A DNA stretch of 38,862 bases, taken from NCBI GenBank assembly GCA_964651835.1, contig CAZYYI010000002.1:1-38862 (forward strand), read 5' to 3'. The notes beneath the pieces were generated by a model. It was not told the DNA's origin and made no database searches. It worked only from the letters and a program-made list of their open reading frames with translations. Below are positions 9,671 to 38,364 of this stretch, piece by piece; position 1 is the stretch's first letter, and the number at the start of each line of letters is the position of its first letter. Source of the DNA: an uncultured Lachnospiraceae bacterium. Its GTDB lineage: Bacteria > Bacillota > Clostridia > Christensenellales > UBA1242. A program made the position numbers and the translations under genes.

Positions 9671-11491
9671 ACCGTTGAGTGAGAATTGTGAGTTATATAA
9701 CTCCGCATAAAATCCGCCTTGCTTGATGAGTGCTTTATGATTGCCACTTTCAATAACATCACCATCTTTAAGTACCAAAATCAGATCTGCATTTTTGATA
9801 GTTGAAAGACGATGTGCAATAACAAAACTTGTTCTGCCAGTGGTTAGTTTATCCATTGCTGACTGGATGAGTTCCTCAGTACGAGTATCAACATTGCTGG
9901 TTGCCTCGTCCAAAATTAGCATTGGAGTATTTTGAAGCATCGCACGAGCAATTGTAAGCAACTGCTTTTGACCAACAGAAACATTGGTTTCATCTGAAAG
10001 CACTGTGTCATAACCATTTGGAAGAGTTTTTATAAAGTGGTCAAGCCCGCAAGCCACACATACCCTATCCAAATCTTCATCTGTTATACCTGATTTATTG
10101 TAAATTAAGTTTTCACGAATTGTACCTTCAAACAGCCAAGTATCTTGAAGCACCATTGAAAAGATATTACGAAGCTGGCTTGCTTTCATATCTTTTATTG
10201 ATACGCCATCAATCAAGATGTCACCAGAGTTCACCTCATAAAATCGCATTAAAAGGTTAACTATTGTTGTTTTACCAGCACCAGTTGGTCCAACTATTGC
10301 AACCTTTTGACCAGGTTTGATATTTGCAGAAAAGTCATGGATAATCTCTCTGCCCTCATCATAACCAAATTTTACATTTTTGATAGTAACTTCACCAGTG
10401 ATTGTTTCTGGCAGTTCAACATTTTTATGTGATTCATCAGCAAGTTCATCTTGTTCCAAAAAGTTAAATACCCTTTCACTAGCAGCGGCTGCTGTTTGAA
10501 TATTAGTCATTGCCTGTGCAATTTGTGAAAGTGGGTTTGTGAAATATCGAATATAAATCATAAATGACACAATAACACCAAAACTGATAGTGCCGTTTTT
10601 TGCAAGCACAGCACCAAGCACGCACACAACAACATAGCCAAAGTTGCCAATAAAGCTCATAAGCGGTTGCATTATACCTGATATAAATTGTGATTTCCAC
10701 GATGCTTTGTAAAGCTTGTCGTTAACTTTGTCAAATTTTTCAGAAGTTTCTTCCAAAGCATTATAAGTTTTGACAATTGTTTGACCTGAATAAACTTCTT
10801 CAACAACGCCGTCTAATTCACCAAGTCTGTTTTGTTGCTGAATGAAATATTTTTGAGATTTTGATACAATTAAAAACATTAAAACAAAGCCAAGTATTGT
10901 TGAGCCGATTGCAGCAAGTGCCATTATCCAGTTTGTAACAAACATCATAATGAGCGAACCAATAAACAACACGATTGCACCAACAAGACCAGAAACACTT
11001 TGATGCAAAGTTTGACCAATGGTATCAATATCATTAGTCATAACAGAAAGCACATCACCATAAGGTGTTTTATCTAAACTTGAAAGTGGAATTTTGTTGA
11101 TTTTATTTGAAAGCTCGCCTCTGAGATTTTGGCTCATTTTAAAACAAACTTTGCCCATCAACACATTAGCAATATAGGTGCTTGCAAAGCCCATAACATA
11201 TAGCACAATTAAAACGATACCAATGTTTATAATTTGGCTCATTTCGTAGCTCACGCCAAGCGATACTGGAATAAGTGAACCCTCTTCAAACACTGGAAGT
11301 GCTTGTTGGATAATATCCGTCATCCTTGAAAGTTGGCTTGGACCAACAAGCCTGAACACTGTGCTAGCAATAATTAAAATTAAAGAAATAATAATAAGTG
11401 GTAAAAATCCATGTAAATATCTAAAAAGTTTTCCTATGGATTTTTTCATATTTTTTGGTCTTTCACCAGCTCTTTGATTCATTCTAGGCAT
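9653..11491 (-). CDS. ABC exporter fused permease/ATPase, consensus-site subunit of a heterodimer (LmrD/BmrD/TM288-like)
   Basis: Walker A GPTGAGKTT, Walker B+Glu MLILDEATS, H-loop IAHRLS, deviant signature VSVGQ. AAGGAGG SD. Start overlaps the upstream stop by 8 nt. Confidence 0.9.
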   Translation of the reverse strand: MPRMNQRAGERPKNMKKSIGKLFRYLHGFLPLIIISLILIIASTVFRLVGPSQLSRMTDIIQQALPVFEEGSLIPVSLGVSYEMSQIINIGIVLIVLYVMGFASTYIANVLMGKVCFKMSQNLRGELSNKINKIPLSSLDKTPYGDVLSVMTNDIDTIGQTLHQSVSGLVGAIVLFIGSLIMMFVTNWIMALAAIGSTILGFVLMFLIVSKSQKYFIQQQNRLGELDGVVEEVYSGQTIVKTYNALEETSEKFDKVNDKLYKASWKSQFISGIMQPLMSFIGNFGYVVVCVLGAVLAKNGTISFGVIVSFMIYIRYFTNPLSQIAQAMTNIQTAAAASERVFNFLEQDELADESHKNVELPETITGEVTIKNVKFGYDEGREIIHDFSANIKPGQKVAIVGPTGAGKTTIVNLLMRFYEVNSGDILIDGVSIKDMKASQLRNIFSMVLQDTWLFEGTIRENLIYNKSGITDEDLDRVCVACGLDHFIKTLPNGYDTVLSDETNVSVGQKQLLTIARAMLQNTPMLILDEATSNVDTRTEELIQSAMDKLTTGRTSFVIAHRLSTIKNADLILVLKDGDVIESGNHKALIKQGGFYAELYNSQFSLNGLNGEN

Positions 11492-26204: not shown

Positions 26205-26561
26205 ATGACAAAAAATTCTTACTACTGCGATTGCAACACTATTCACAGAGACACAGTTGCAAAAGTAGAAAACAAAATGTTAACTAGTGCAGAGTTTGAT
26301 GCAATAACCAAATTTGCAAAGGCACTTGGTGATAAAACCAGAATCAAAATTGCGTGGGCATTATATAACAATGAGATGTGCGTTTGTGATATTGCAAACT
26401 TGCTTTCAATGACAAAGTCGGCAGTGTCACACCAGTTAAGAGAGCTTAGACTAGCAAACCTTGTAGATTGCAGACGTAATGGAAAAACTGTTTACTACTC
26501 ACTTGCAGATGACCATGTATCAAACTTTTTGAAAAATGCCCAGGAGCATATTAAGGAGTAA
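26205..26561 (+). CDS. cadC: ArsR/SmtB-family metalloregulator, CadC-like
   Basis: CVCDIANLL (alpha3 Cys pair), N-terminal Cys pair YYCDCN, HTH SKSAVSHQLRELRLANLV. AAGGAG SD. Confidence 0.8.
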   Translation: MTKNSYYCDCNTIHRDTVAKVENKMLTSAEFDAITKFAKALGDKTRIKIAWALYNNEMCVCDIANLLSMTKSAVSHQLRELRLANLVDCRRNGKTVYYSLADDHVSNFLKNAQEHIKE

Positions 26562-26564
26562 TGT

Positions 26565-28403
26565 ATGGATAATAAAGAAAAACTTTTAATTGCTAGAATT
26601 GTTGTATCAGCAGTTTTGCTTATATTAACACTATTTTCATTTTTAAATGATTTAGCTAAACTTATTATGAATATAGTTGCATTTGTAATAATTAGCTACG
26701 ATATTTTGATTGAGCTTGTGGTTGGTATTTTTAAAAAGGAATTTGAAAGCGAAAAATTTTTAATGCTGATTGCAAGTATTGGTGCGTTTTGCATTAATGA
26801 ATATCACGAGGCTGTTGCAGTTATGCTACTTTACCAGCTTGGAGAATTTTTGCAAGACAAAGCAGTGGATAAAAGTAAAGACTCAATTGTTAAACTTATG
26901 GACATTAGACCAGACTATGCTAATGTTATTCGTGATGGAAATATTTTAAAAGTAAGCCCTCAAGATGTGAAAGTTGGCGAAACAATAATAATTTATGCCG
27001 GTGAAAAAATTTCACTTGATGGAAAAATTTTAGAAGGTTCAACCAGCCTAGACACCTCTGCCCTAACTGGCGAAAGTTTACCTGCTGATGTGACTGAAGG
27101 TGACAATGTGCTTTCTGGTTCAGTTAACTTAACCGGTACTATTAAGGTTGAAGTTACCACCACTTACGGCGAATCAACTGTTGCAAAAATAATTGAAATT
27201 GTCAGCAATAGTGAGAAAAACCAAGCAAAATCACAAAAATTTATATCAAAATTTGCAAAAATCTATACACCAGTGGTTGTTGGATTAGCAGTACTCATTG
27301 CAATTTTGCCACCAATAATTATTGGGGGCGAATGGTTTACCTGGCTTGAGCGTGCTTTGATGATGCTTGTTATATCTTGCCCTTGTGCCTTAGTTATATC
27401 TATTCCACTTACCTTTTTTGCAGGCATTGGCGGAGCGTCAAGAAACGGAATTTTGGTTAAAGGTGCAAACTTTATTGAAGCTCTTTCTAAATGTACTTGT
27501 ATAGCATTTGACAAGACTGGAACTCTCACCAAAGGTAATTTTAAAGTTACTAAAGTTATAGCTAATGGAGTTAGTGAAGATGAACTACTAGAACTTGCAG
27601 CTGCCGCAGAAACTGAGTCATCACACCCAATAGCAATGGCAATTAAAAATGAAATAAAAACTTTATCTAAACTAAAACCAACATCAACCTCTACCCTTGC
27701 GGGTTTTGGTGTTAAAGCTATCATCAATAAAAAAACAATTTTGGTTGGTAGCTTTAAACTTATGCAAGAAAGTAGCATTGAAGCAGAACAAGTTGATGAT
27801 ACTGGCACTATTATCTATATTGCACGAGAACAGGATTATCTTGGTGCAATAGTTATTGAAGATGAAATAAAAGAAACCGCAATAGATGGCCTAGCAGCAT
27901 TGAAAAATGTAAATGTTAATAAAACATTAATGCTAACTGGTGATAAAAAATCTGTAGCTTACTCAGTTGCTGAAAAACTTAAAATTGATGATTGTTACTA
28001 TGAACTTTTGCCAGAGGACAAAGCCAAAATTTTGGCAGAAACAAAAAATAACAATAAAGGCAAAATTGCTTTTATTGGTGATGGCATAAACGATGCCCCT
28101 GCTTTTAAAACTGCTGACATAGGTATTGCGATGGGATTAAACGGCAGTGATGTTGCAGTTGAAGCCGCTGATGTTTTGGTTATGAATGATGACTTAAACA
28201 AACTCAGCACTATGATTAAACAATCTCAAAAGACAATGCGCATTGCAAAACAAAATATTATCTTTTCAATAGCATTCAAAGTTTTAATGCTTACACTTGG
28301 TGCTTTTGGATTAATCAATATGTGGCTTGCAGTGCTTGCAGATGTTGGCGTTGCACTGCTTGCTGTACTCAACGCCCTAAGAGCAATGAGAAAAATAAAA
28401 TAA
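26565..28403 (+). CDS. cadA: heavy-metal (Cd/Zn/Co-type) P1B-type ATPase lacking an N-terminal HMA domain
   Basis: CPC motif (VISCPCALVIS), FDKTGTLT, GDGINDAPA. The protein starts directly with TM helices. It begins 4 nt after the cadC-like stop. Confidence 0.8.
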   Translation: MDNKEKLLIARIVVSAVLLILTLFSFLNDLAKLIMNIVAFVIISYDILIELVVGIFKKEFESEKFLMLIASIGAFCINEYHEAVAVMLLYQLGEFLQDKAVDKSKDSIVKLMDIRPDYANVIRDGNILKVSPQDVKVGETIIIYAGEKISLDGKILEGSTSLDTSALTGESLPADVTEGDNVLSGSVNLTGTIKVEVTTTYGESTVAKIIEIVSNSEKNQAKSQKFISKFAKIYTPVVVGLAVLIAILPPIIIGGEWFTWLERALMMLVISCPCALVISIPLTFFAGIGGASRNGILVKGANFIEALSKCTCIAFDKTGTLTKGNFKVTKVIANGVSEDELLELAAAAETESSHPIAMAIKNEIKTLSKLKPTSTSTLAGFGVKAIINKKTILVGSFKLMQESSIEAEQVDDTGTIIYIAREQDYLGAIVIEDEIKETAIDGLAALKNVNVNKTLMLTGDKKSVAYSVAEKLKIDDCYYELLPEDKAKILAETKNNNKGKIAFIGDGINDAPAFKTADIGIAMGLNGSDVAVEAADVLVMNDDLNKLSTMIKQSQKTMRIAKQNIIFSIAFKVLMLTLGAFGLINMWLAVLADVGVALLAVLNALRAMRKIK

Positions 28404-28464: not shown

Positions 28465-28674
28465 TTATTTGATTTCTGTAACTGTGTAGCCAGCCTCTTC
28501 AACTGCACTAATAATAGTTTTATCATCAACATCTTTTGTAAGTTTAATAATTGCTTGGTTTTGTTCCAAACTAACTAGAGCTTCGCTTACGCCATCAATT
28601 TTTTCAAGTGCTGACTTTGTATGACCCACGCAGTGCATACAAACCATACCTTCAATTTTAATTGTTTTAGTCAT
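28465..28674 (-). other. CopZ-like HMA module in frame within the copA 3' end, with its own SD and ATG
   Basis: AAGGAGG (28689-28683), 8-nt spacer, ATG (28674-28672). Translation: MTKTIKIEGMVCMHCVGHTKSALEKIDGVSEALVSLEQNQAIIKLTKDVDDKTIISAVEEAGYTVTEIK. Confidence 0.5.
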
Positions 28675-31077
28675 AACTTTATCCTCCTTTAACTTATTAT
28701 ATTCATTATTATTTTTGTCATCAACTATAATTTTATCATTATTTTTGATATTTTTTGCAGTTTTTTGTTTTGGTTTGAAAAAGTTTAATCTTAAAGCATT
28801 AAGTACCACACAAACTGAACTAAAGCTCATTGCAAGCGAACCTATCATTGGGCTTAATTGCCAGCCAAATACTGAATAGAATACTCCTGCCGCAAGAGGT
28901 ATGCCAAGTATATTATAGAAAAACGCCCAAAATAAATTCATTTTAATATTATTAATAGTAGCCCTTGAAAGTTCAATAGCTGTGCTTATTCCACCAAGTG
29001 ATGAACCAGTTAGCACTATATCTGCAGACTCAATTGCTATATCACTTCCGCTGCTAACAGCAATGCCCACATCTGCTTTAGAGAGTGCTGGAGAGTCATT
29101 TATGCCATCACCCACCATTGCAACCTTGTAGCCAAGCTCTTGATATTTTTTAACTACACTCAGTTTTTCATCTGGCAAAACATCTGACACAACTTCAGTT
29201 ATACCAACCTCTTTCGCAATAGATGTTGCAATCAACTTGTTATCACCAGTAAGCATAACTACTTTTAAATTTTTGTCTAATAGCTTTTGTATTGCAATTT
29301 TGCTATCTTCTTTTATTTTATCTGAAATTGATACAATACCTTGCAATTTTTTGTTCTTTACAAATATGATTGAAGTTTTACCTTCACTGCCAAATTTATT
29401 GGTATGTTCATTTACCCAAGCCAAATCTATACTTTTTAACAAATCTTTAGTTTCTAAAAGTTTTAAATTTCCTGCATAGTACATTTCACCATCAATTTTT
29501 GCACACACGCCCTTGCCAGCAATTTCTTCAAAATTATTAGTTTTTACATTATCATTTTGCAAATCATTAATTTCAGAAACAATTGCTTTTGCAAGTGGAT
29601 GACTGCTTAACGCTTCAAGTTTTGCTAGGTCTTGCAAAAATTTATTTTCATCTATACTTTTATCAAATATAGCAACATCTCTAACAGTAGGTTTGCCGAT
29701 TGTTATTGTGCCAGTCTTATCCAATATGATTGTGTCTATGCTATGCAGTTTTTCCAAACTTTCGGCAGACTTGATTAGCAAACCAAGGCTGGCCGCTCTG
29801 CCAGTAGAAACCATAATAGCAACCGGGGTTGCAAGCCCAAGTGCACACGGACAAGATATAACAAGCACTGCTACCGCACAGGTTAGCGCAAAACCAAAAG
29901 TAGCACCAGCAATAAGCCAAACAACAAACGTGAGCAAAGCAATGCACATAACAATTGGAACAAACCAACCGCTAACTTTATCTGCTATTCTTGAAATAGG
30001 TGCTTTAGTGCTACTAGCTTCTTCAACCAGCCTAATGATTTTTGCAAGAGTAGTATTTTTGCCAACGCTTGTAGCACGCATTTTGAAACTACCATTTTCA
30101 CAGACGCTTGCAGACATAACTGGCTCGCCCACTATCTTTTTTACTGAATTAGATTCGCCAGTAATTGCCGCTTGATTTAACCTGCCTTCACCCTCAACAA
30201 CAACTCCATCAACAACAAGGGTGTCACCTGTTTTAATCACCAAAATGTCATCTGTTAAAATTTCATCAGCTTTTATAGTAACTTCTTTCCCGTCCCTTAG
30301 AACTATTGCAGTTTTTGGTGCTAAGTTCATAAGTTTTTGAATGGCAGATGTTGTTTTAATTTTAGATTTACTTTCAAAAAACTTACCAAGTGAAACCAGT
30401 GTGAGTATTGTGGCTGCAGATTCAAAATAAAGCGAATGAGCATATGACAAGGCTGAATCAAATTTTCCGTGCCCAATATCAAAAGCTAATATAAAAAGTA
30501 TTACAATGCTATATATATAAGATGCTCCTGCTCCAACAGCAACCAAACTATCCATATTAGGTGAACGATGAATTATTGCTTTAAAGCCTGAAACAAAGAA
30601 TTTTTTATTTATTATGATTATTGCTGTGCAAAGTATGAGCTGAGCAAGTGCCAAAATTAAAGCGTTTTCTTTACCTTCAAAAAACCAAAAATTAGGAGCA
30701 CCTAGCATATGAGCCATAGCAATATAAAGCAATGGCACAAGTAATATAAATGAAATTATTACTCTTAATTTAAGTTTTTTACAAGCAAGCTTTTGGCTAT
30801 CTATTGCTGTTTTAAAACTGCTACTTTCAGCTGGCTCAGCATCATTTTTATTATCATTATTTGTGCCAGCAACAGTTGCGCCATATCCAGCTGATTCAAC
30901 AGCAGCAATTATCTTATCATTATCAGTTTTGCTTTCATCAAAAACTACTTCCATACTGCCAGTAAGCAAATTTACATTTGCTTCTTGCACTCCAGAAGTT
31001 TTATTAACAGCTTTAGTTACGCTACGCTCACAAGCTGAACACGTCATTCCAGTAACATAAAACTTTTGCTTTTTCAT
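28465..31077 (-). CDS. copA: copper-translocating P1B-type ATPase with N-terminal and C-terminal HMA domains
   Basis: N-terminal GMTCSACERSV, CPC (VISCPCALGLATP), LDKTGTIT, GDGINDSPA. C-terminal 69 aa form a complete HMA fold with GMVCMHCVGH. Confidence 0.9.
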   Translation of the reverse strand: MKKQKFYVTGMTCSACERSVTKAVNKTSGVQEANVNLLTGSMEVVFDESKTDNDKIIAAVESAGYGATVAGTNNDNKNDAEPAESSSFKTAIDSQKLACKKLKLRVIISFILLVPLLYIAMAHMLGAPNFWFFEGKENALILALAQLILCTAIIIINKKFFVSGFKAIIHRSPNMDSLVAVGAGASYIYSIVILFILAFDIGHGKFDSALSYAHSLYFESAATILTLVSLGKFFESKSKIKTTSAIQKLMNLAPKTAIVLRDGKEVTIKADEILTDDILVIKTGDTLVVDGVVVEGEGRLNQAAITGESNSVKKIVGEPVMSASVCENGSFKMRATSVGKNTTLAKIIRLVEEASSTKAPISRIADKVSGWFVPIVMCIALLTFVVWLIAGATFGFALTCAVAVLVISCPCALGLATPVAIMVSTGRAASLGLLIKSAESLEKLHSIDTIILDKTGTITIGKPTVRDVAIFDKSIDENKFLQDLAKLEALSSHPLAKAIVSEINDLQNDNVKTNNFEEIAGKGVCAKIDGEMYYAGNLKLLETKDLLKSIDLAWVNEHTNKFGSEGKTSIIFVKNKKLQGIVSISDKIKEDSKIAIQKLLDKNLKVVMLTGDNKLIATSIAKEVGITEVVSDVLPDEKLSVVKKYQELGYKVAMVGDGINDSPALSKADVGIAVSSGSDIAIESADIVLTGSSLGGISTAIELSRATINNIKMNLFWAFFYNILGIPLAAGVFYSVFGWQLSPMIGSLAMSFSSVCVVLNALRLNFFKPKQKTAKNIKNNDKIIVDDKNNNEYNKLKEDKVMTKTIKIEGMVCMHCVGHTKSALEKIDGVSEALVSLEQNQAIIKLTKDVDDKTIISAVEEAGYTVTEIK

Positions 31078-31160: not shown

Positions 31161-31532
31161 TTACAATAATTTTTTATACATATCAATAACTTCTGGCAAA
31201 AGTGATTTATCATTATTTTTAATTTTGTCAGTAACAGTTGTTTCAAGAAAATCTTGATAAACTAAAACCGCTACCATTTGAATATCTTTTTCACAAGCTT
31301 TAAGCTGTGTTAAAATATCAGTAGTGTATCTATTGTCATCAATCATCTTTTTTACGCCATTGATTTGACCAATAGCCTTGTTAAGTTTTGCTTGCAAGCT
31401 TTTGATAGCAGCTTCACTTCTCTGTTGATGTTTAACAACATAGCCATTTTCACGGCTTGCACCATTATAAACTTCACCAACTGCATATTCTGAATTTTGA
31501 ACAGTTGTTGTTTTGCTTTTTGTATTTGCCAT
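31161..31532 (-). CDS. CsoR/RcnR-family (DUF156) regulator lacking canonical metal ligands
   Basis: LQAKLNKAIGQINGVKKMIDDNRYTTDILTQLKACEKDIQMVAVLVYQDFLETTV aligns with the CsoR core (RL.RIEGQ..G...M......C.D.L.Q.....H...C). Start set to ATG 31532 (MANTKSK, GGGGG SD). Confidence 0.7.
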   Translation of the reverse strand: MANTKSKTTTVQNSEYAVGEVYNGASRENGYVVKHQQRSEAAIKSLQAKLNKAIGQINGVKKMIDDNRYTTDILTQLKACEKDIQMVAVLVYQDFLETTVTDKIKNNDKSLLPEVIDMYKKLL

Positions 31533-31537
31533 TTTAA

Positions 31538-31594
31538 ATACCCCCATACCCGTACATCTATTTTAATAATACTTTAAATTAATAATCTTGTCAA
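31538..31594 (-). promoter_or_regulatory. promoter plus G/C-rich box in the 5' UTR of the csoR-like gene
   Basis: On the minus strand: TTGACA (31594-31589), 17-nt spacer, TATTAT (31571-31566), then GTACGGGTATGGGGGTAT (31555-31538) just before the ATG. Confidence 0.5.
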
Positions 31595-34697: not shown

Positions 34698-35942
34698 CTA
34701 TTTTATTGTAACCTTAACAAAACTCTTTTTGCCTTTTTTGAGAAGAAGTGAGCCATTTTCAAAGTCTTTTTCAAAAAGTTTCAAATTTGGGTCAGTTACC
34801 TTTTCGCCGCCAGCAGTTATACCGCCGTTTTGAATAAGTCTTCTGGTTTCACCATTGCTTGTGGCTAAATTTGTTTTGACAAGCAAAGTGAGTATGCCCA
34901 TACCATCAGCAATTTCGGTTTTAGAAATCTCAACAACAGGTGCATCATCTCCACCATCAGTGAACAAGTTTTCACTCATATTTTTGGCAAGGATAGCATC
35001 TTCTTCGCCACGAACAAATTTTGTGATTTCATAGCAAAGACGCTTTTTTGCACTAACAATATCACTTGATATAAGTTTTTCAATTTCACTCATAGGCAAA
35101 TCAGTGAAAAGTGCAAACATCATTTTTACACAAGCATCTGGAGTTTGATAAATACCTTGGTAAAAATCATAAGCAGAAATTTTATCCTTATCAATCCAAA
35201 TAGCACCTCTTTCAGTTTTGCCCATCTTTTTGCCCTCTGGAGTCAAAAGCAATGGGTTTGTTGCACCGATTAAATTGATATTTGTGCCATTTACAAAATT
35301 AAGTTTTCTTGCAAGCTCTGTGCCAGCAGCAATGTTACCCCACTGGTCTGCACCGCCATACTGCAAAGTGCAGCCATATTCTTTATTTAAATGCACAAAG
35401 TCATAAGCTTGCATTGGCATATAACCAAGTTCAAAAAGTGAAAGCCCACCTTCACTAAGTCTGTTTGCATAAATTTCATTAGAAAGCATTTTGTTAATAT
35501 TGAAATGTACACCAATATTACGCATAAATTCAATATAATTAAGATTTTTAAACCAGTCAGCATTATTAACAATTATTGCAGGGTTTTCACCTTCAAAATC
35601 CAAAAACACACTAAGAGTCTTTTTGATTTTTGAGATATTGGTTACAATCTGTTCAGCCGTCATCATTGGTCGCATTTCAGACTTGCCTGTTGGGTCACCA
35701 ATACTTGCAGTTGCACCGCCCATTAAAACCAAAACTTTGTGTCCTGCTTTTTGAAAGCGTCTAAGAATAGTATATGGCACACAGTGACCAATATGCAAAC
35801 TATCTGCAGTTGGGTCAGTACCTTCATATAGTGTTATAGGCTTGCCACTTTCAAGCATATTTTTAAGTGCTTGCTCATCAGTACATTGATAAAGCAGCCC
35901 TCTCTCTTTTAGCTCATTATATAAATTTGTATTAACTTTCAT
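34698..35942 (-). CDS. tyrS: tyrosine--tRNA ligase
   Basis: HIGH motif (DSLHIGH), KMSKS variant KMGKT, C-terminal S4-like domain. Start set to ATG 35942 (MKVNTNLY; AGGAG SD at 8 nt) rather than the track GTG 35960. Confidence 0.9.
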   Translation of the reverse strand: MKVNTNLYNELKERGLLYQCTDEQALKNMLESGKPITLYEGTDPTADSLHIGHCVPYTILRRFQKAGHKVLVLMGGATASIGDPTGKSEMRPMMTAEQIVTNISKIKKTLSVFLDFEGENPAIIVNNADWFKNLNYIEFMRNIGVHFNINKMLSNEIYANRLSEGGLSLFELGYMPMQAYDFVHLNKEYGCTLQYGGADQWGNIAAGTELARKLNFVNGTNINLIGATNPLLLTPEGKKMGKTERGAIWIDKDKISAYDFYQGIYQTPDACVKMMFALFTDLPMSEIEKLISSDIVSAKKRLCYEITKFVRGEEDAILAKNMSENLFTDGGDDAPVVEISKTEIADGMGILTLLVKTNLATSNGETRRLIQNGGITAGGEKVTDPNLKLFEKDFENGSLLLKKGKKSFVKVTIK

Positions 35943-35991
35943 ACCATTATCTCCTAGCACATATTAAATCAAATGCTTTGCATTTAATAAG

Positions 35992-36019
35992 ATTTTAACA
36001 CAAGTTTTAAAATATTCAA
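35992..36019 (-). promoter_or_regulatory. candidate tyrS promoter
   Basis: On the minus strand: TTGAAT (36019-36014), 16-nt spacer, TGtTAAAAT extended -10 (-10 hexamer at 35997-35992). Confidence 0.45.
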
Positions 36020-36041
36020 AATTTTTAAGTGTAAAAAACAA

Positions 36042-36068
36042 AAAAAGCATACAAATAGTATGCTTTTT
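36042..36068 (-). terminator. intrinsic terminator after the multi-HTH gene
   Basis: AAAAAGCATAC-AAATA-GTATGCTTTTT, with a long T-run on the minus strand. Confidence 0.7.
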
Positions 36069-36080
36069 AGTTATTTTTAA

Positions 36081-37940
36081 TTATTCAGTTGTCTTTTCTT
36101 TTTTGCTATCACTTTCGCCATTTATAAGAAAATCAATTTTTTCTTCCAATTTCTTCTTCTTAGTATAGACAGTAGCTATCGCACAATCAACTTTTTTGCT
36201 AACTTCCTTTAAAGTTAAAGGATTGTAAGCAAGGATAATTTCAAATAATATAAATTTTTCATCTTCATCTAACGTATTTGCAAATTTTAAAACTTCCTCT
36301 TCTCCACCCATAGCTTCAATTAATTTTGTAACATTTGACTTTTGAGTTTCATAACCATTAAGTTTATCAATCACGCTTTTCTTTATATTATAAATTATAT
36401 CACGACTAATACCCATTGTTTCAGCTGAATTATATAAATTTGTGTAATGATAATCCATTAAAAATGTAATTAACATTTGAAATTCTCTATCATTTAAAGT
36501 TGGCCCAAATTCATTAATTAAAAAGTCTTCACCATGGTTAGCCTCAATAAATTTCTCACATTCTTGCTTACGCTTAATTACATCAAAAACTATGTTCCTT
36601 GTTTTATTAATTATATTTAAAGCATCGCTGGAAACAATTTTATTTTCATCACAAAATTCTTCTATACTCTTTGGCTCATCTTCGATTATAAAACTATGAA
36701 AAACTTTTTTTTGCATATCATCCAAAAACAACTCAATATCTTGAATAGTATTGTCATCATATGTTATTTTTGAATAATTTTCATTATTATCTTGCAATAA
36801 TGTTTTTACTTTTTCAAAATTGTTTTTGCAACTCTTTACATAATCATTAATAGTAACAAGCACCCTACAAATATGATCTCTACTTTGTTTGTCAGTGCCA
36901 AGCCCAGCAGCTTTTAATTTTTCTTCATTAACATCAATAATTAAATTTTCAAAAACAATTCGTTCTGTTCCTACAAGTTTTTCATTAACCGTTAAAACAA
37001 ATTGCGGATTACTAGCAAGTTCACCCATCATTTTTTTGATATTGATAATTCTTGTAAAATTTGTATAATATTTAAATTCAGAATCACCAGTGTAAACATA
37101 ATCTTCAATTTGCATAAAGCCATTTAAAATTTTATTAATTACACCAATTGAATCACTGGTTGCTTGTCTACTTATATTTCTTTGGTCACCAATTTCATAA
37201 AAAGTTTTGCCTTTGATATAGTACTCAACAAATAAAGGTATATAAAATTCGCTAAGCCCCATGGAAACTTTAAAAATAGAATCAAGGTTATCGCTACCTA
37301 CTGCTTTCTTCAAACTTTTAATATGGTCAAGATTGTAGTAAATTTCTTTATCATCAATTTCTTTATAATATTTTTTTATAGAATTCACAAATTCTAGTTG
37401 CTCTTTATAATTAAATATTTTTCTAAGTTCAGCTTTTACTGAAGCATATTTATATCGCTTTATACCTTCAAGTTCCTCAGAAGTTTTATTAATTGTTGCA
37501 TTTTTAAAATAATAATTTGTAAAAATATTGAACAGTTTTGAAGGCAAAATTTGCAAATCTTCAAGTAAATTTGGAATGGTTGTAAACTCTTGCACATAAT
37601 CAAAAAATTCATTAATCTTTTCTTCATTATAAACTACATAATCAACCAGTCCATTATCTACAAAGCCCTTGGCAACATCAACAAATTCAGGATATTTGCC
37701 AGCAACCTCAAGCTGACTGTAAACTAATTGCATAGTTCTTGATGTCCAATTACGAGGTTTATTTAAATAATCTTCTACTTCAATACAAGATTTATTATTT
37801 AAATAATAAAGTTTAAATCCCTCAACCATTTCTTTTTCCATAGTAGAAAAAACCAATTCAAGTCTTTCAATAGTATCTATATTGAACTTTTTGGCAAAAC
37901 GGGTTAATTTTTGTTTATTAGATTTATTCATATTCTCCAT
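36081..37940 (-). CDS. 619-aa protein composed of about 7 tandem sigma-70 region 4 / YlxM-like HTH modules
   Basis: Recurring pattern every 75-98 aa. Examples: LFVEYYIKGKTFYEIGDQRNISRQATSDSIGVINKIL; FKLYYLNNKSCIEVEDYL..TSRTMQLV; FQMLITFLMDYHYTNLYNSAETMGISRDIIYNIKKS; FILFEIILAYNPLTLKEVSKKVDCAIATVYTKKKKL. Start set to ATG 37940 because the track extension to 38030 runs through the promoter. Confidence 0.6.
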   Translation of the reverse strand: MENMNKSNKQKLTRFAKKFNIDTIERLELVFSTMEKEMVEGFKLYYLNNKSCIEVEDYLNKPRNWTSRTMQLVYSQLEVAGKYPEFVDVAKGFVDNGLVDYVVYNEEKINEFFDYVQEFTTIPNLLEDLQILPSKLFNIFTNYYFKNATINKTSEELEGIKRYKYASVKAELRKIFNYKEQLEFVNSIKKYYKEIDDKEIYYNLDHIKSLKKAVGSDNLDSIFKVSMGLSEFYIPLFVEYYIKGKTFYEIGDQRNISRQATSDSIGVINKILNGFMQIEDYVYTGDSEFKYYTNFTRIINIKKMMGELASNPQFVLTVNEKLVGTERIVFENLIIDVNEEKLKAAGLGTDKQSRDHICRVLVTINDYVKSCKNNFEKVKTLLQDNNENYSKITYDDNTIQDIELFLDDMQKKVFHSFIIEDEPKSIEEFCDENKIVSSDALNIINKTRNIVFDVIKRKQECEKFIEANHGEDFLINEFGPTLNDREFQMLITFLMDYHYTNLYNSAETMGISRDIIYNIKKSVIDKLNGYETQKSNVTKLIEAMGGEEEVLKFANTLDEDEKFILFEIILAYNPLTLKEVSKKVDCAIATVYTKKKKLEEKIDFLINGESDSKKEKTTE

Positions 37941-37946
37941 AAAACC

Positions 37947-37975
37947 ATTATAACACGCAAAAAGGTCACAGTCAA
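37947..37975 (-). promoter_or_regulatory. near-consensus promoter placing the TSS at or next to the ATG (leaderless)
   Basis: On the minus strand: TTGACT (37975-37970), 17-nt spacer ending in TGt, TATAAT (37952-37947), GGTTTT, ATG (37940). No SD. Confidence 0.55.
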
Positions 37976-38129: not shown

Positions 38130-38206
38130 GCAACCGTAGCTCAGCTGGATAGAGTACTCGGCTACGAACCGAGCGGTCGGGAGTTCGAATCTCTCTGGAC
38201 GCACCA
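38130..38206 (+). tRNA. trnR: tRNA-Arg (anticodon ACG) with two acceptor-stem mismatches
   Basis: Cloverleaf: GCAACCG / TA / GCTC-AGCTGGATA-GAGT / A / CTCGG-CTACGAA-CCGAG / CGGTC / GGGAG-TTCGAAT-CTCTC / TGGACGC / A / CCA. Positions 3:70 (A:C) and 4:69 (A:A) do not pair. Confidence 0.8.
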
Positions 38207-38343: not shown

Positions 38344-38364
38344 CGAATCTCTCTGGACGCACCA
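38344..38364 (+). repeat. 21-nt perfect direct copy of the tRNA-Arg 3' end
   Basis: CGAATCTCTCTGGACGCACCA at 38186-38206 (inside the tRNA) and again at 38344-38364. Confidence 0.9.

Follow-up and report, generated by a model that had tools for sequence, protein, structure and literature searches.

The window analyzed here is a 38,862-nucleotide (nt) stretch of contig CAZYYI010000002.1 (assembly GCA_964651835.1) from an uncultured Lachnospiraceae bacterium, and one of its genes encodes a protein of 619 amino acids (aa) that is built from helix-turn-helix (HTH) modules resembling region 4 of sigma-70 factors (σ4). The open reading frame (ORF) was confirmed to hold seven such modules, at the positions given in a preliminary description made from the letters of the DNA, and sequence profiles divide them into two kinds: three copies of σ4 proper, one intact and two decayed, and four repeats of a second type (R1-R4, ~73 aa each), three intact and one decayed. 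With moderate confidence, we read the product as a sigma-derived transcription regulator that would lack region 2 (σ2) and would work via σ4. On the same reading, which we give about even chances, the gene would be a chromosomal, vertically inherited member, without σ2, of a small and undescribed sigma-70-derived family.

The four repeats were examined with a profile hidden Markov model (HMM) built from the C-terminal repeats of relatives, from which the window protein was left out and which included no canonical σ4 sequences. This repeat HMM matched residues 395-459 (E-value 7e-10), 460-534 (5e-23), and 537-607 (3e-20), and the leave-one-out score of the window protein was 126.7 bits. A decayed copy was found at residues 321-343 (independent E-value 1.4e-3), and the real score of segment 286-394 was reached by none of 1000 shuffles. 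The other three modules were examined with an HMM of 44 ordinary sigma factors, a set pre-selected with a profile containing the window protein, and the 49 bits given to residues 215-279 (module 3) are possibly somewhat inflated for that reason. Residues 1-100 and 101-200 scored 9.8 and 11.7 bits against this σ4 HMM, compared with 2.6 and 0.1 bits for the reversed sequences, and these N-terminal scores were reached by none of 1000 shuffles and none of 350 100-aa tiles of real proteins (maximum, 8.8 bits). Module 2 also obtained 8.7-11.7 bits from the σ4 part of an HMM of the N-terminal region of class-A relatives (see below). The N-terminal modules aligned to σ4 in the region 4.1 helix and the HTH start only, with the xYYxxxK(S/T) motif in common with module 3; by these comparisons, modules 1 and 2 are weak but above chance.

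The recurring modules that had been placed at about residues 44, 142, 239, 331, 415, 491, and 566 were thus all recovered by profiles (repeat HMM and σ4 HMM), and no Pfam, NCBIfam, PDB, PHROG, or PADLOC entry assigned the protein to a well-characterized family. Self-BLASTP of the window protein gave no off-diagonal match even at an E-value of 1000, the repeats having diverged so far that profiles, and not pairwise comparison, are needed to detect them. Neither did a PDB sequence search with the whole protein give a match, and, with every Pfam and NCBIfam match below cut-off, the protein is assigned to no curated family. The third module had been described as close to the YlxM/UPF0122 proteins and to sigma region 4. 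The likeness is supported by its σ4 HMM score and by its alignment with the Pfam-positive σ4 of the relative P0003, but the curated cut-offs were not reached: module 3 obtained 20.3 bits from Pfam Sigma70_r4 (PF04545; cut-off 24.1), 17.6-22.6 bits from UPF0122 (PF04297; cut-off 22.7), and 35.7 from NCBIfam YlxM (NF045758; cut-off 80). When Pfam was run on the seven segments separately, module 3 alone was matched, again below threshold.

The R-type units also resemble σ4. Of 62 ordinary sigma factors, 41 were matched in their C-terminal σ4 by the repeat HMM at E<0.01 (best, 1e-8; best shuffled, 0.014), and in a comparison of a 39-repeat profile with all PDB sequences the top match was region 4 of Thermotoga σA (1TTY; E 0.009), followed by region 4 of RpoD, RpoS, and FliA and by LuxR-type HTHs. 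An R-type unit has three σ4-like helices and, ahead of them, an additional helix, h0, which usually ends in GG. A structural model was obtained with AlphaFold2 (AF2) on 36 sequences, an earlier 3-sequence model with a predicted local distance difference test score (pLDDT) of 54 having been discarded. One and the same four-helix unit recurred five times in the model, at residues 219-277, 312-384, 396-467, 470-543, and 547-618, with pLDDT values of 86-93 for module 3, 70-84 at 312-384, and >90 from residue 395 on. R2-R4, all at pLDDT >90, were joined by 30-residue connecting helices, suggesting that they form a rigid block. The top 50 matches of the model in a Foldseek search of the PDB were almost all sigma factors, none of them significant and the list suggestive only, and in BFVD a local 66-column match to a "sigma-70 region 4" protein (root-mean-square deviation 2.6) was likewise not significant.

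Relatives of the window protein are few. A word-indexed search of 5.8 billion proteins returned two, and an exhaustive profile search of 1.84 billion representatives returned 37 proteins at E<=1e-10, 30 of them at E<=1e-30 (~36 clusters), beyond which came ordinary sigma factors matching only the σ2-σ4 part of the profile. The family profile, which includes the window protein, gave it 947 bits. The family is tiny and known from metagenomes only, its members come from uncultured low-GC (guanine plus cytosine) gut Clostridia, and many neighboring genes in the loci examined carry no family assignment. The seven-fold array had been presented as one with no described role; the lack of a curated family or description stands, but the protein is not an orphan, with ~36 related clusters.

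Repeat mapping and Pfam divided the family into three architectures. Class A (~550 aa) carries σ2, σ4, and R1-R4, with Sigma70_r2 and r4 above the gathering cut-off in several members; class B (~400 aa) carries σ4 and R1-R4; and class C (~340 aa) consists of R1-R4 only. Judged by their domains, the class-A proteins are sigma factors with a C-terminal extension and are the typical members of the family, making up most of it. Irregular architectures were found in the window protein, P0026, and P0033. Each of R1, R2, R3, and R4 has its own consensus, kept across the family, which makes the block an old one and not a recent expansion. The R3 signature of the family, C[EQ]KFIxxNGGEDFL[IV]xEFGxTLxDxxFxxLxxxMDYHY, appears in the window protein as NHGEDFLINEFGPTL...MDYHY, in columns that are invariant in the family alignments. 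The matches of R2, R3, and R4 together with this signature place the window protein in the "GGEDFL-MDYHY" four-repeat family, its R1 being decayed.

Tandem σ4 arrays also occur, rarely, outside the four-repeat family. A sister metagenomic family of ~760 aa (P0038, P0040, P0042, P0043, P0048, P0050, and P0051, with the shorter relatives P0063 and P0079) resembles it in having σ2-σ4 followed by tandem "GGxxFLxxxF...L" σ4-like repeats (repeat HMM, 1e-8 to 1e-18), and differs from it in having five repeats and no MDYHY signature; the sister family is itself uncharacterized. Other metagenomic proteins with σ4 arrays are P0062 and P0104. P0037 (1818 aa, metagenomic), a separate and unrelated case, appears to have a sigma-70-like core and then about five σ4-like repeats by eye, of which the repeat HMM found three (1275-1467), flanked by long hydrophobic segments.

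Next to these relatives, the window protein is distinguished by its N-terminus, where two decayed extra copies of σ4 stand in the place that σ2 would take, followed by the good σ4, the decayed R1, and R2, R3, and R4. Sigma70_r2 of Pfam gave no match at E<=10 to the whole protein or its segments, and the σ2 part of the class-A N-terminal HMM found nothing in residues 1-200, while its σ4 part matched residues 163-277 and 97-180. P0002, the ortholog encoded at the syntenic locus L001, likewise begins directly at σ4. As the σ2 profile was blank, the σ4 part matched instead, and P0002 starts at σ4, the window protein appears to be without σ2, that is, a derivative lacking σ2 within a family that consists typically of sigma factors plus four repeats. 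Region 2 is responsible for core binding, -10 recognition, and melting, and without it the window protein would be unable to act as a sigma factor.

Within R1-R4, conservation followed the reverse of the pattern in real σ4: the h0 and 4.1 helices were the most conserved (2.1-2.8 bits) and the HTH/recognition helix the least (1.3-1.7 bits). Conservation of h0/4.1 peaked in R3, which carries the NGGEDFLxNEFGxTL...MDYHY signature, and the S-R-Q signature of σ4 was lost from the recognition-helix region. With a pI of 5.15 and a net charge of -18, the window protein is acidic; each of R2-R4 carries -4 to -6, and their HTH halves only +1 to +3. That the HTH face of R1-R4 varies most and the flanking helices least speaks against an array of seven equivalent readers of DNA.

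On these data, we propose that the protein would act as a regulator via its intact σ4 module, contacting a -35-like DNA element and/or the β-flap of RNA polymerase. R1-R4 would serve as a rigid, autonomous scaffold whose conserved h0/4.1 surfaces bind a protein partner or hold the array together, and would not be four further sequence-specific readers. Overall, the protein would plausibly compete with a σ holoenzyme at promoters or modulate it. That the R1-R4 block is functionally autonomous is indicated by gene organization, since stand-alone R1-R4 genes fill the slot that is occupied at another locus by a gene for σ2-σ4 and the four repeats: P0003 (L002), of the latter type, lies between mnmE and jag-yidC-rnpA-rpmH-dnaN-dnaA, and in the uncultured Eubacteriales metagenome-assembled genome MGBC150436 the slot between mnmE and jag, near oriC, holds five tandem ~340-aa class-C paralogs (L004, 7629-12793, +).

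Several points weigh against this interpretation. Residues 1-200 were modeled with low confidence (pLDDT <50), and these N-terminal 200 residues may conceal a very divergent σ2. The rigidity of R2-R4 is a property of the predicted model, and no match at E<=0.001 was obtained for the whole model with Foldseek in the PDB or BFVD. The HTH halves of R1-R3 have a family mean net charge of +2.2 to +4.1, compared with +3.8 in real σ4, so that the repeats may contact DNA, and their variable recognition helices could mean diversified DNA specificities and not decay.

A different interpretation takes up the multivalent DNA or RNA binder of the preliminary description: most or all of the seven HTHs would contact DNA or RNA at once, over an extended or repeated site. 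In the σ2-bearing relatives, the R1-R4 rod would then read the DNA upstream of -35 as a built-in activator, and the window protein, making such contacts in the absence of σ2, would be a repressor that occludes promoters or a protein of the nucleoid type. All of the modules are σ4-like HTH units, the charge of the R1-R3 HTH halves is on average comparable to that of real σ4, a conserved basic RK(K/Q) closes each repeat, the predicted rigid spacing could fit successive DNA grooves, and several relatives adjoin the oriC region. However, R1-R4 are least conserved in the recognition-helix region, which has lost S-R-Q, the window protein is acidic down to the individual repeats, with HTH halves of low charge, modules 1, 2, and R1 are decayed, and the two aligned upstream regions showed no repeated operator-like motif by eye, no motif search having been run. 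We therefore retain the array of σ4-like HTHs from the earlier proposal, consider seven equivalent readers doubtful, and regard multivalent binding as somewhat unlikely.

The gene has the features of a single transcription unit (Table 1). The preliminary description had pointed to a near-consensus promoter with an upstream TG, lying 6 nt before an ATG that lacks a Shine-Dalgarno sequence, and to a strong terminator after the gene, and both were present. The best promoter-like site of the region was that at 37975-37947, whose -10 box ends 6 nt from ATG 37940, and this ATG is without a Shine-Dalgarno sequence; the terminator hairpin (36042-36068) has a predicted energy of -15.3 kcal/mol (z = -5.4 vs. 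shuffles). The same geometry, TTGACT-17 nt-TAAAAT-6 nt-ATG, was found at L001, and in the alignment of the two upstream regions the -35 box, the extended -10 box, and ATGG were all kept. The next in-frame ATG of L001 is without a Shine-Dalgarno sequence, which, together with the kept geometry, supports a leaderless start in this tyrS-linked pair of genes. In the window, an alternative start at the fourth codon (ATG 37931, Met4) would give 616 aa and is used in the public gene call P0001, an identical protein; it is preceded by GGAG with a spacer of only 3 nt. L002 and L004 have similar promoters, but their starts carry a Shine-Dalgarno sequence. In view of the GGAG and of these starts, leaderless translation is plausible for the window gene and is not a family trait. 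The gene would be expressed singly from a strong housekeeping-type promoter and end at its own terminator, with an mRNA that is either leaderless or has a ~9-nt leader. At L002, P0003 was called from ATG 10001, a codon overlapping the -10 box of the gene's promoter (TTGACG-17 nt-TAAAAT), suggesting that the true start is probably the GTG at 10079, preceded by GAGGGA, and that the first 26 residues of P0003 are likely spurious.

Table 1. Positions in the window of the gene, its modules, and adjoining features
Feature	Positions	Strand	Evidence or remark
CDS (coding sequence) of the multi-σ4 protein	36081..37940	-	619 aa from ATG 37940, stop codon included
Module 1, ~residues 20-80, decayed σ4-type, contains FKLYYLNNKS	37701..37883	-	σ4 HMM 9.8 bits
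Module 2, ~residues 109-184, decayed σ4-type, contains LPSKLFNIFTNYYFKNAT	37389..37616	-	σ4 HMM 11.7 bits
Module 3, residues 205-281, well-kept canonical σ4 (regions 4.1/4.2, YYIKGKTFYEIGDQRNISRQATSDSI)	37098..37328	-	σ4 HMM 49 bits
R1, ~residues 290-390, decayed first copy of the four-repeat module	36771..37073	-	repeat HMM, shuffles, AF2
R2, residues 395-459	36564..36758	-	repeat HMM 7e-10; pLDDT >90
R3, residues 460-534	36339..36563	-	repeat HMM 5e-23; most conserved repeat
R4, residues 536-611	36108..36335	-	repeat HMM 3e-20; pLDDT >95
σ70-type promoter TTGACT-17 nt-TATAAT with upstream TG	37947..37975	-	11/12 consensus matches
Intrinsic terminator: 11-bp stem, 5-nt loop, T-run	36033..36068	-	13 nt past the stop codon
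tRNA-Arg(ACG), divergent from the gene; conserved neighbor, also in L001	38130..38206	+
Exact 21-nt copy of the tRNA 3' end (38186-38206, including CCA), att-like	38344..38364	+	158 nt downstream

These signals bear on whether the gene is a decaying relic, a former σ2-σ4-four-repeat sigma factor that is drifting and whose product has no role, with the extra N-terminal modules and the decayed R1 as signs of erosion. Such decay would fit the weakness of modules 1, 2, and R1, the pLDDT below 50 in residues 1-200, the rarity of the family with its unstable architectures, and the GC content of the gene, which at 26.5% is the lowest in the window (32.4% overall). Against it, no stop codon interrupts the 619 codons of the ORF even though such codons arise readily at the 32% GC of the genome, the near-consensus promoter and the strong terminator are in place, promoter geometry and synteny are kept with L001 despite a protein identity of ~37%, and σ4, R2, R3, and R4 are well conserved. 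A relic is, in our estimate, quite improbable.

That the protein is a real alternative sigma factor, with a σ2 that has diverged beyond the reach of profiles, must be rated lower still, as very improbable. Among the closest relatives there are indeed true σ2-σ4 proteins, the AF2 model makes the N-terminal region helical and of about the right length, and NCBIfam TIGR02937 gave a sub-threshold match of 33.2 bits (cut-off 42.9). This match, however, spans the C-terminal repeats (448-602) and no σ2 region, both N-terminal segments match σ4 instead, the syntenic ortholog P0002 starts at σ4, and the family σ2 profile was blank in residues 1-200, though the family profile easily finds σ4 in class-B members. 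A classification of the window protein as a true sigma factor was rejected for want of the σ2 domain.

The surroundings of the gene had been taken, in the preliminary description, as compatible with mobile-element ancestry, given a neighboring tRNA with integration-type scars. The tRNA-Arg and an exact 21-nt repeat of its 3' end are present, but the repeat is on the far side of the tRNA, away from the gene. Between the two copies lie 137 nt, made up of a terminator hairpin and ~110 nt and nothing else, with another terminator beyond them; the pair looks like the empty or collapsed attachment (att) sites left by an element that had integrated at the 3' end of the tRNA. The 21-nt repeat was absent from every other locus fetched. 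On the same side of the orthologous tRNA, L001 carries a methyltransferase gene, a MazE-like gene, and other accessory genes, and the tRNA-Arg may be an integration hotspot. On the other side, the order of the divergent tRNA-Arg(ACG), the gene, tyrS, and the DUF3592 gene is identical in the window and L001, the two σ4-array proteins being ~37% identical. Further neighbors in the window are csoR-copA, arsR-cadA, and a flavodoxin gene, and no integrase, recombinase, phage, or other mobile-element gene was found among the neighbors checked, from 24016 to the window end.

Other relatives are likewise found beside core genes. In addition to the loci between mnmE and jag, the L005 relative also adjoins jag, and the sister family (L010, 4931-7276; L011, 8001-10289) lies between pcrA-ligA and rpsL-rpsG-fusA-tuf. 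P0033 (812 aa, five R-type repeats; L008, 8001-10439) is divergent from rpoB-rpoC; a position beside the RNA polymerase genes is a suggestive placement for a sigma-derived gene. The sole relative near a serine recombinase gene and a Rep gene was P0026. An alignment pattern scan for relatives in IMG/VR viral contigs found none, and the window protein gave no match in PHROG or PADLOC, although P0002 and P0003 matched, via σ4, PHROG families of transcription regulators and sigma factors (e.g., phrog_1740, RNA polymerase sigma factor, 9e-08). That the gene is a mobile-element or phage regulator inserted beside a tRNA, as its place next to a tRNA-Arg with a repeated 3' end, its own promoter and terminator, its low GC, the surroundings of P0026, and the PHROG matches of P0002 and P0003 might suggest, is barely credible in view of the side on which the repeat lies, the synteny with L001, the core positions of the relatives, the blank IMG/VR, PHROG, and PADLOC searches, the lack of an integrase among the neighbors checked, and the GC content at third codon positions (GC3), which at 0.18 is inside the range of the neighboring genes. 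Cargo of a mobile element or prophage was accordingly rejected as an identity of the gene.

Some features of the neighborhood may be recorded separately. The start codon of tyrS (34698-35942, -) lies only ~100 nt from the terminator upstream of it (35942-36042). In Firmicutes, tyrS is usually regulated by a T-box, and Rfam at its gathering threshold found no T-box leader at this gene. Two metal-resistance pairs adjoin each other: one consists of an arsR-type regulator and a P-type ATPase (26205-28403, +), and the other of a csoR-type repressor (31161-31547, -) and a copA-like ATPase with two HMA domains (28465-31077, -).

The protein was also compared with known systems. Region 4 of sigma-70 factors (PF04545/PF08281; alternative sigma factors of groups 3 and 4) is among the closest: module 3 likewise has a 4.1 helix, an HTH, and an S-R-Q recognition helix, all other modules of the window protein align to σ4 profiles, and the long relatives have σ2 and σ4 above Pfam thresholds. 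Unlike sigma-70 factors, the window protein is without σ2 and has seven σ4-like units instead of one; its PF04545 and TIGR02937 scores are below the cut-offs, and its R units add h0 and invert the conservation. YlxM is a protein of ~110 aa with one module, and its gene lies upstream of ffh. Module 3 resembles the single σ4-like HTH of YlxM and scores just below threshold, whereas the window protein, of 619 aa, carries seven modules and its gene adjoins tRNA-Arg and tyrS; with these neighbors, this length, and an NF045758 score of 35.7 against a cut-off of 80, membership in YlxM/UPF0122 was rejected. The tetrahelical HTHs of the LuxR/GerE type (DesR, VraR) have the fold class in common, and the repeat profile weakly matched their C-terminal domains in the PDB, but these matches were not significant (E 0.08-0.85) and were weaker than the match to σ4. 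To our knowledge, no tandem arrays of the LuxR/GerE-type domain have been described.

The long relatives, with a compact σ2-σ4 and a large C-terminal domain, are also comparable in plan to extracytoplasmic function (ECF) sigma factors with fused C-terminal extensions, such as ECF41 and ECF42, as presented in the parts of the ECF re-classification consulted (PMC7826278). The extension types named there are TPR, SnoaL-like, Cys-rich, DUF1835, and transmembrane, and σ4-like repeats are not among them (PMC7826278). The present family differs from these ECF factors in that R1-R4 also forms a stand-alone protein and that the window protein has no σ core to be regulated. The loci of the long members that were looked at had no evident anti-sigma gene adjoining. 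The window protein was not accepted as an ECF sigma factor with an extension, as it has no σ2, although such a core is present in the long relatives.

A sigma factor is generally understood to carry one region 4. Literature searches for tandem σ4 or region-4 repeats found no description; σ70-derived proteins are known, and the multi-σ4 architecture is undescribed. The known fused extensions of sigma factors are sensor-type domains, as far as the same parts of the ECF re-classification extend (PMC7826278). The family comprises ~36 clusters among 1.84 billion representatives, all from metagenomes, and its function is predicted from sequence and a model. Within it, the block follows σ2-σ4 in some members and σ4 only in others, forms a protein by itself, or, in the window protein, comes after three copies of σ4, and this family would offer a natural "σ minus σ2" series for the study of σ4-like domains away from a sigma factor. 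R1-R4 might even be an unrecognized module of the transcription machinery and its σ2-less versions sigma mimics, forming a σ/pseudo-σ system in reduced-genome gut Clostridia, a proposal that we rate as unlikely. If it is true, R1-R4 would be a rigid rod of four σ4-derived units that, when fused to σ2-σ4, gives the sigma factor a reader of upstream DNA or a second polymerase-docking surface, and the window gene product and the five tandem paralogs of L004 would occupy or remodel the same promoters as the sigma factor. A family in which region 4 has been expanded into a conserved block of four units would represent a new design among bacterial transcription regulators.

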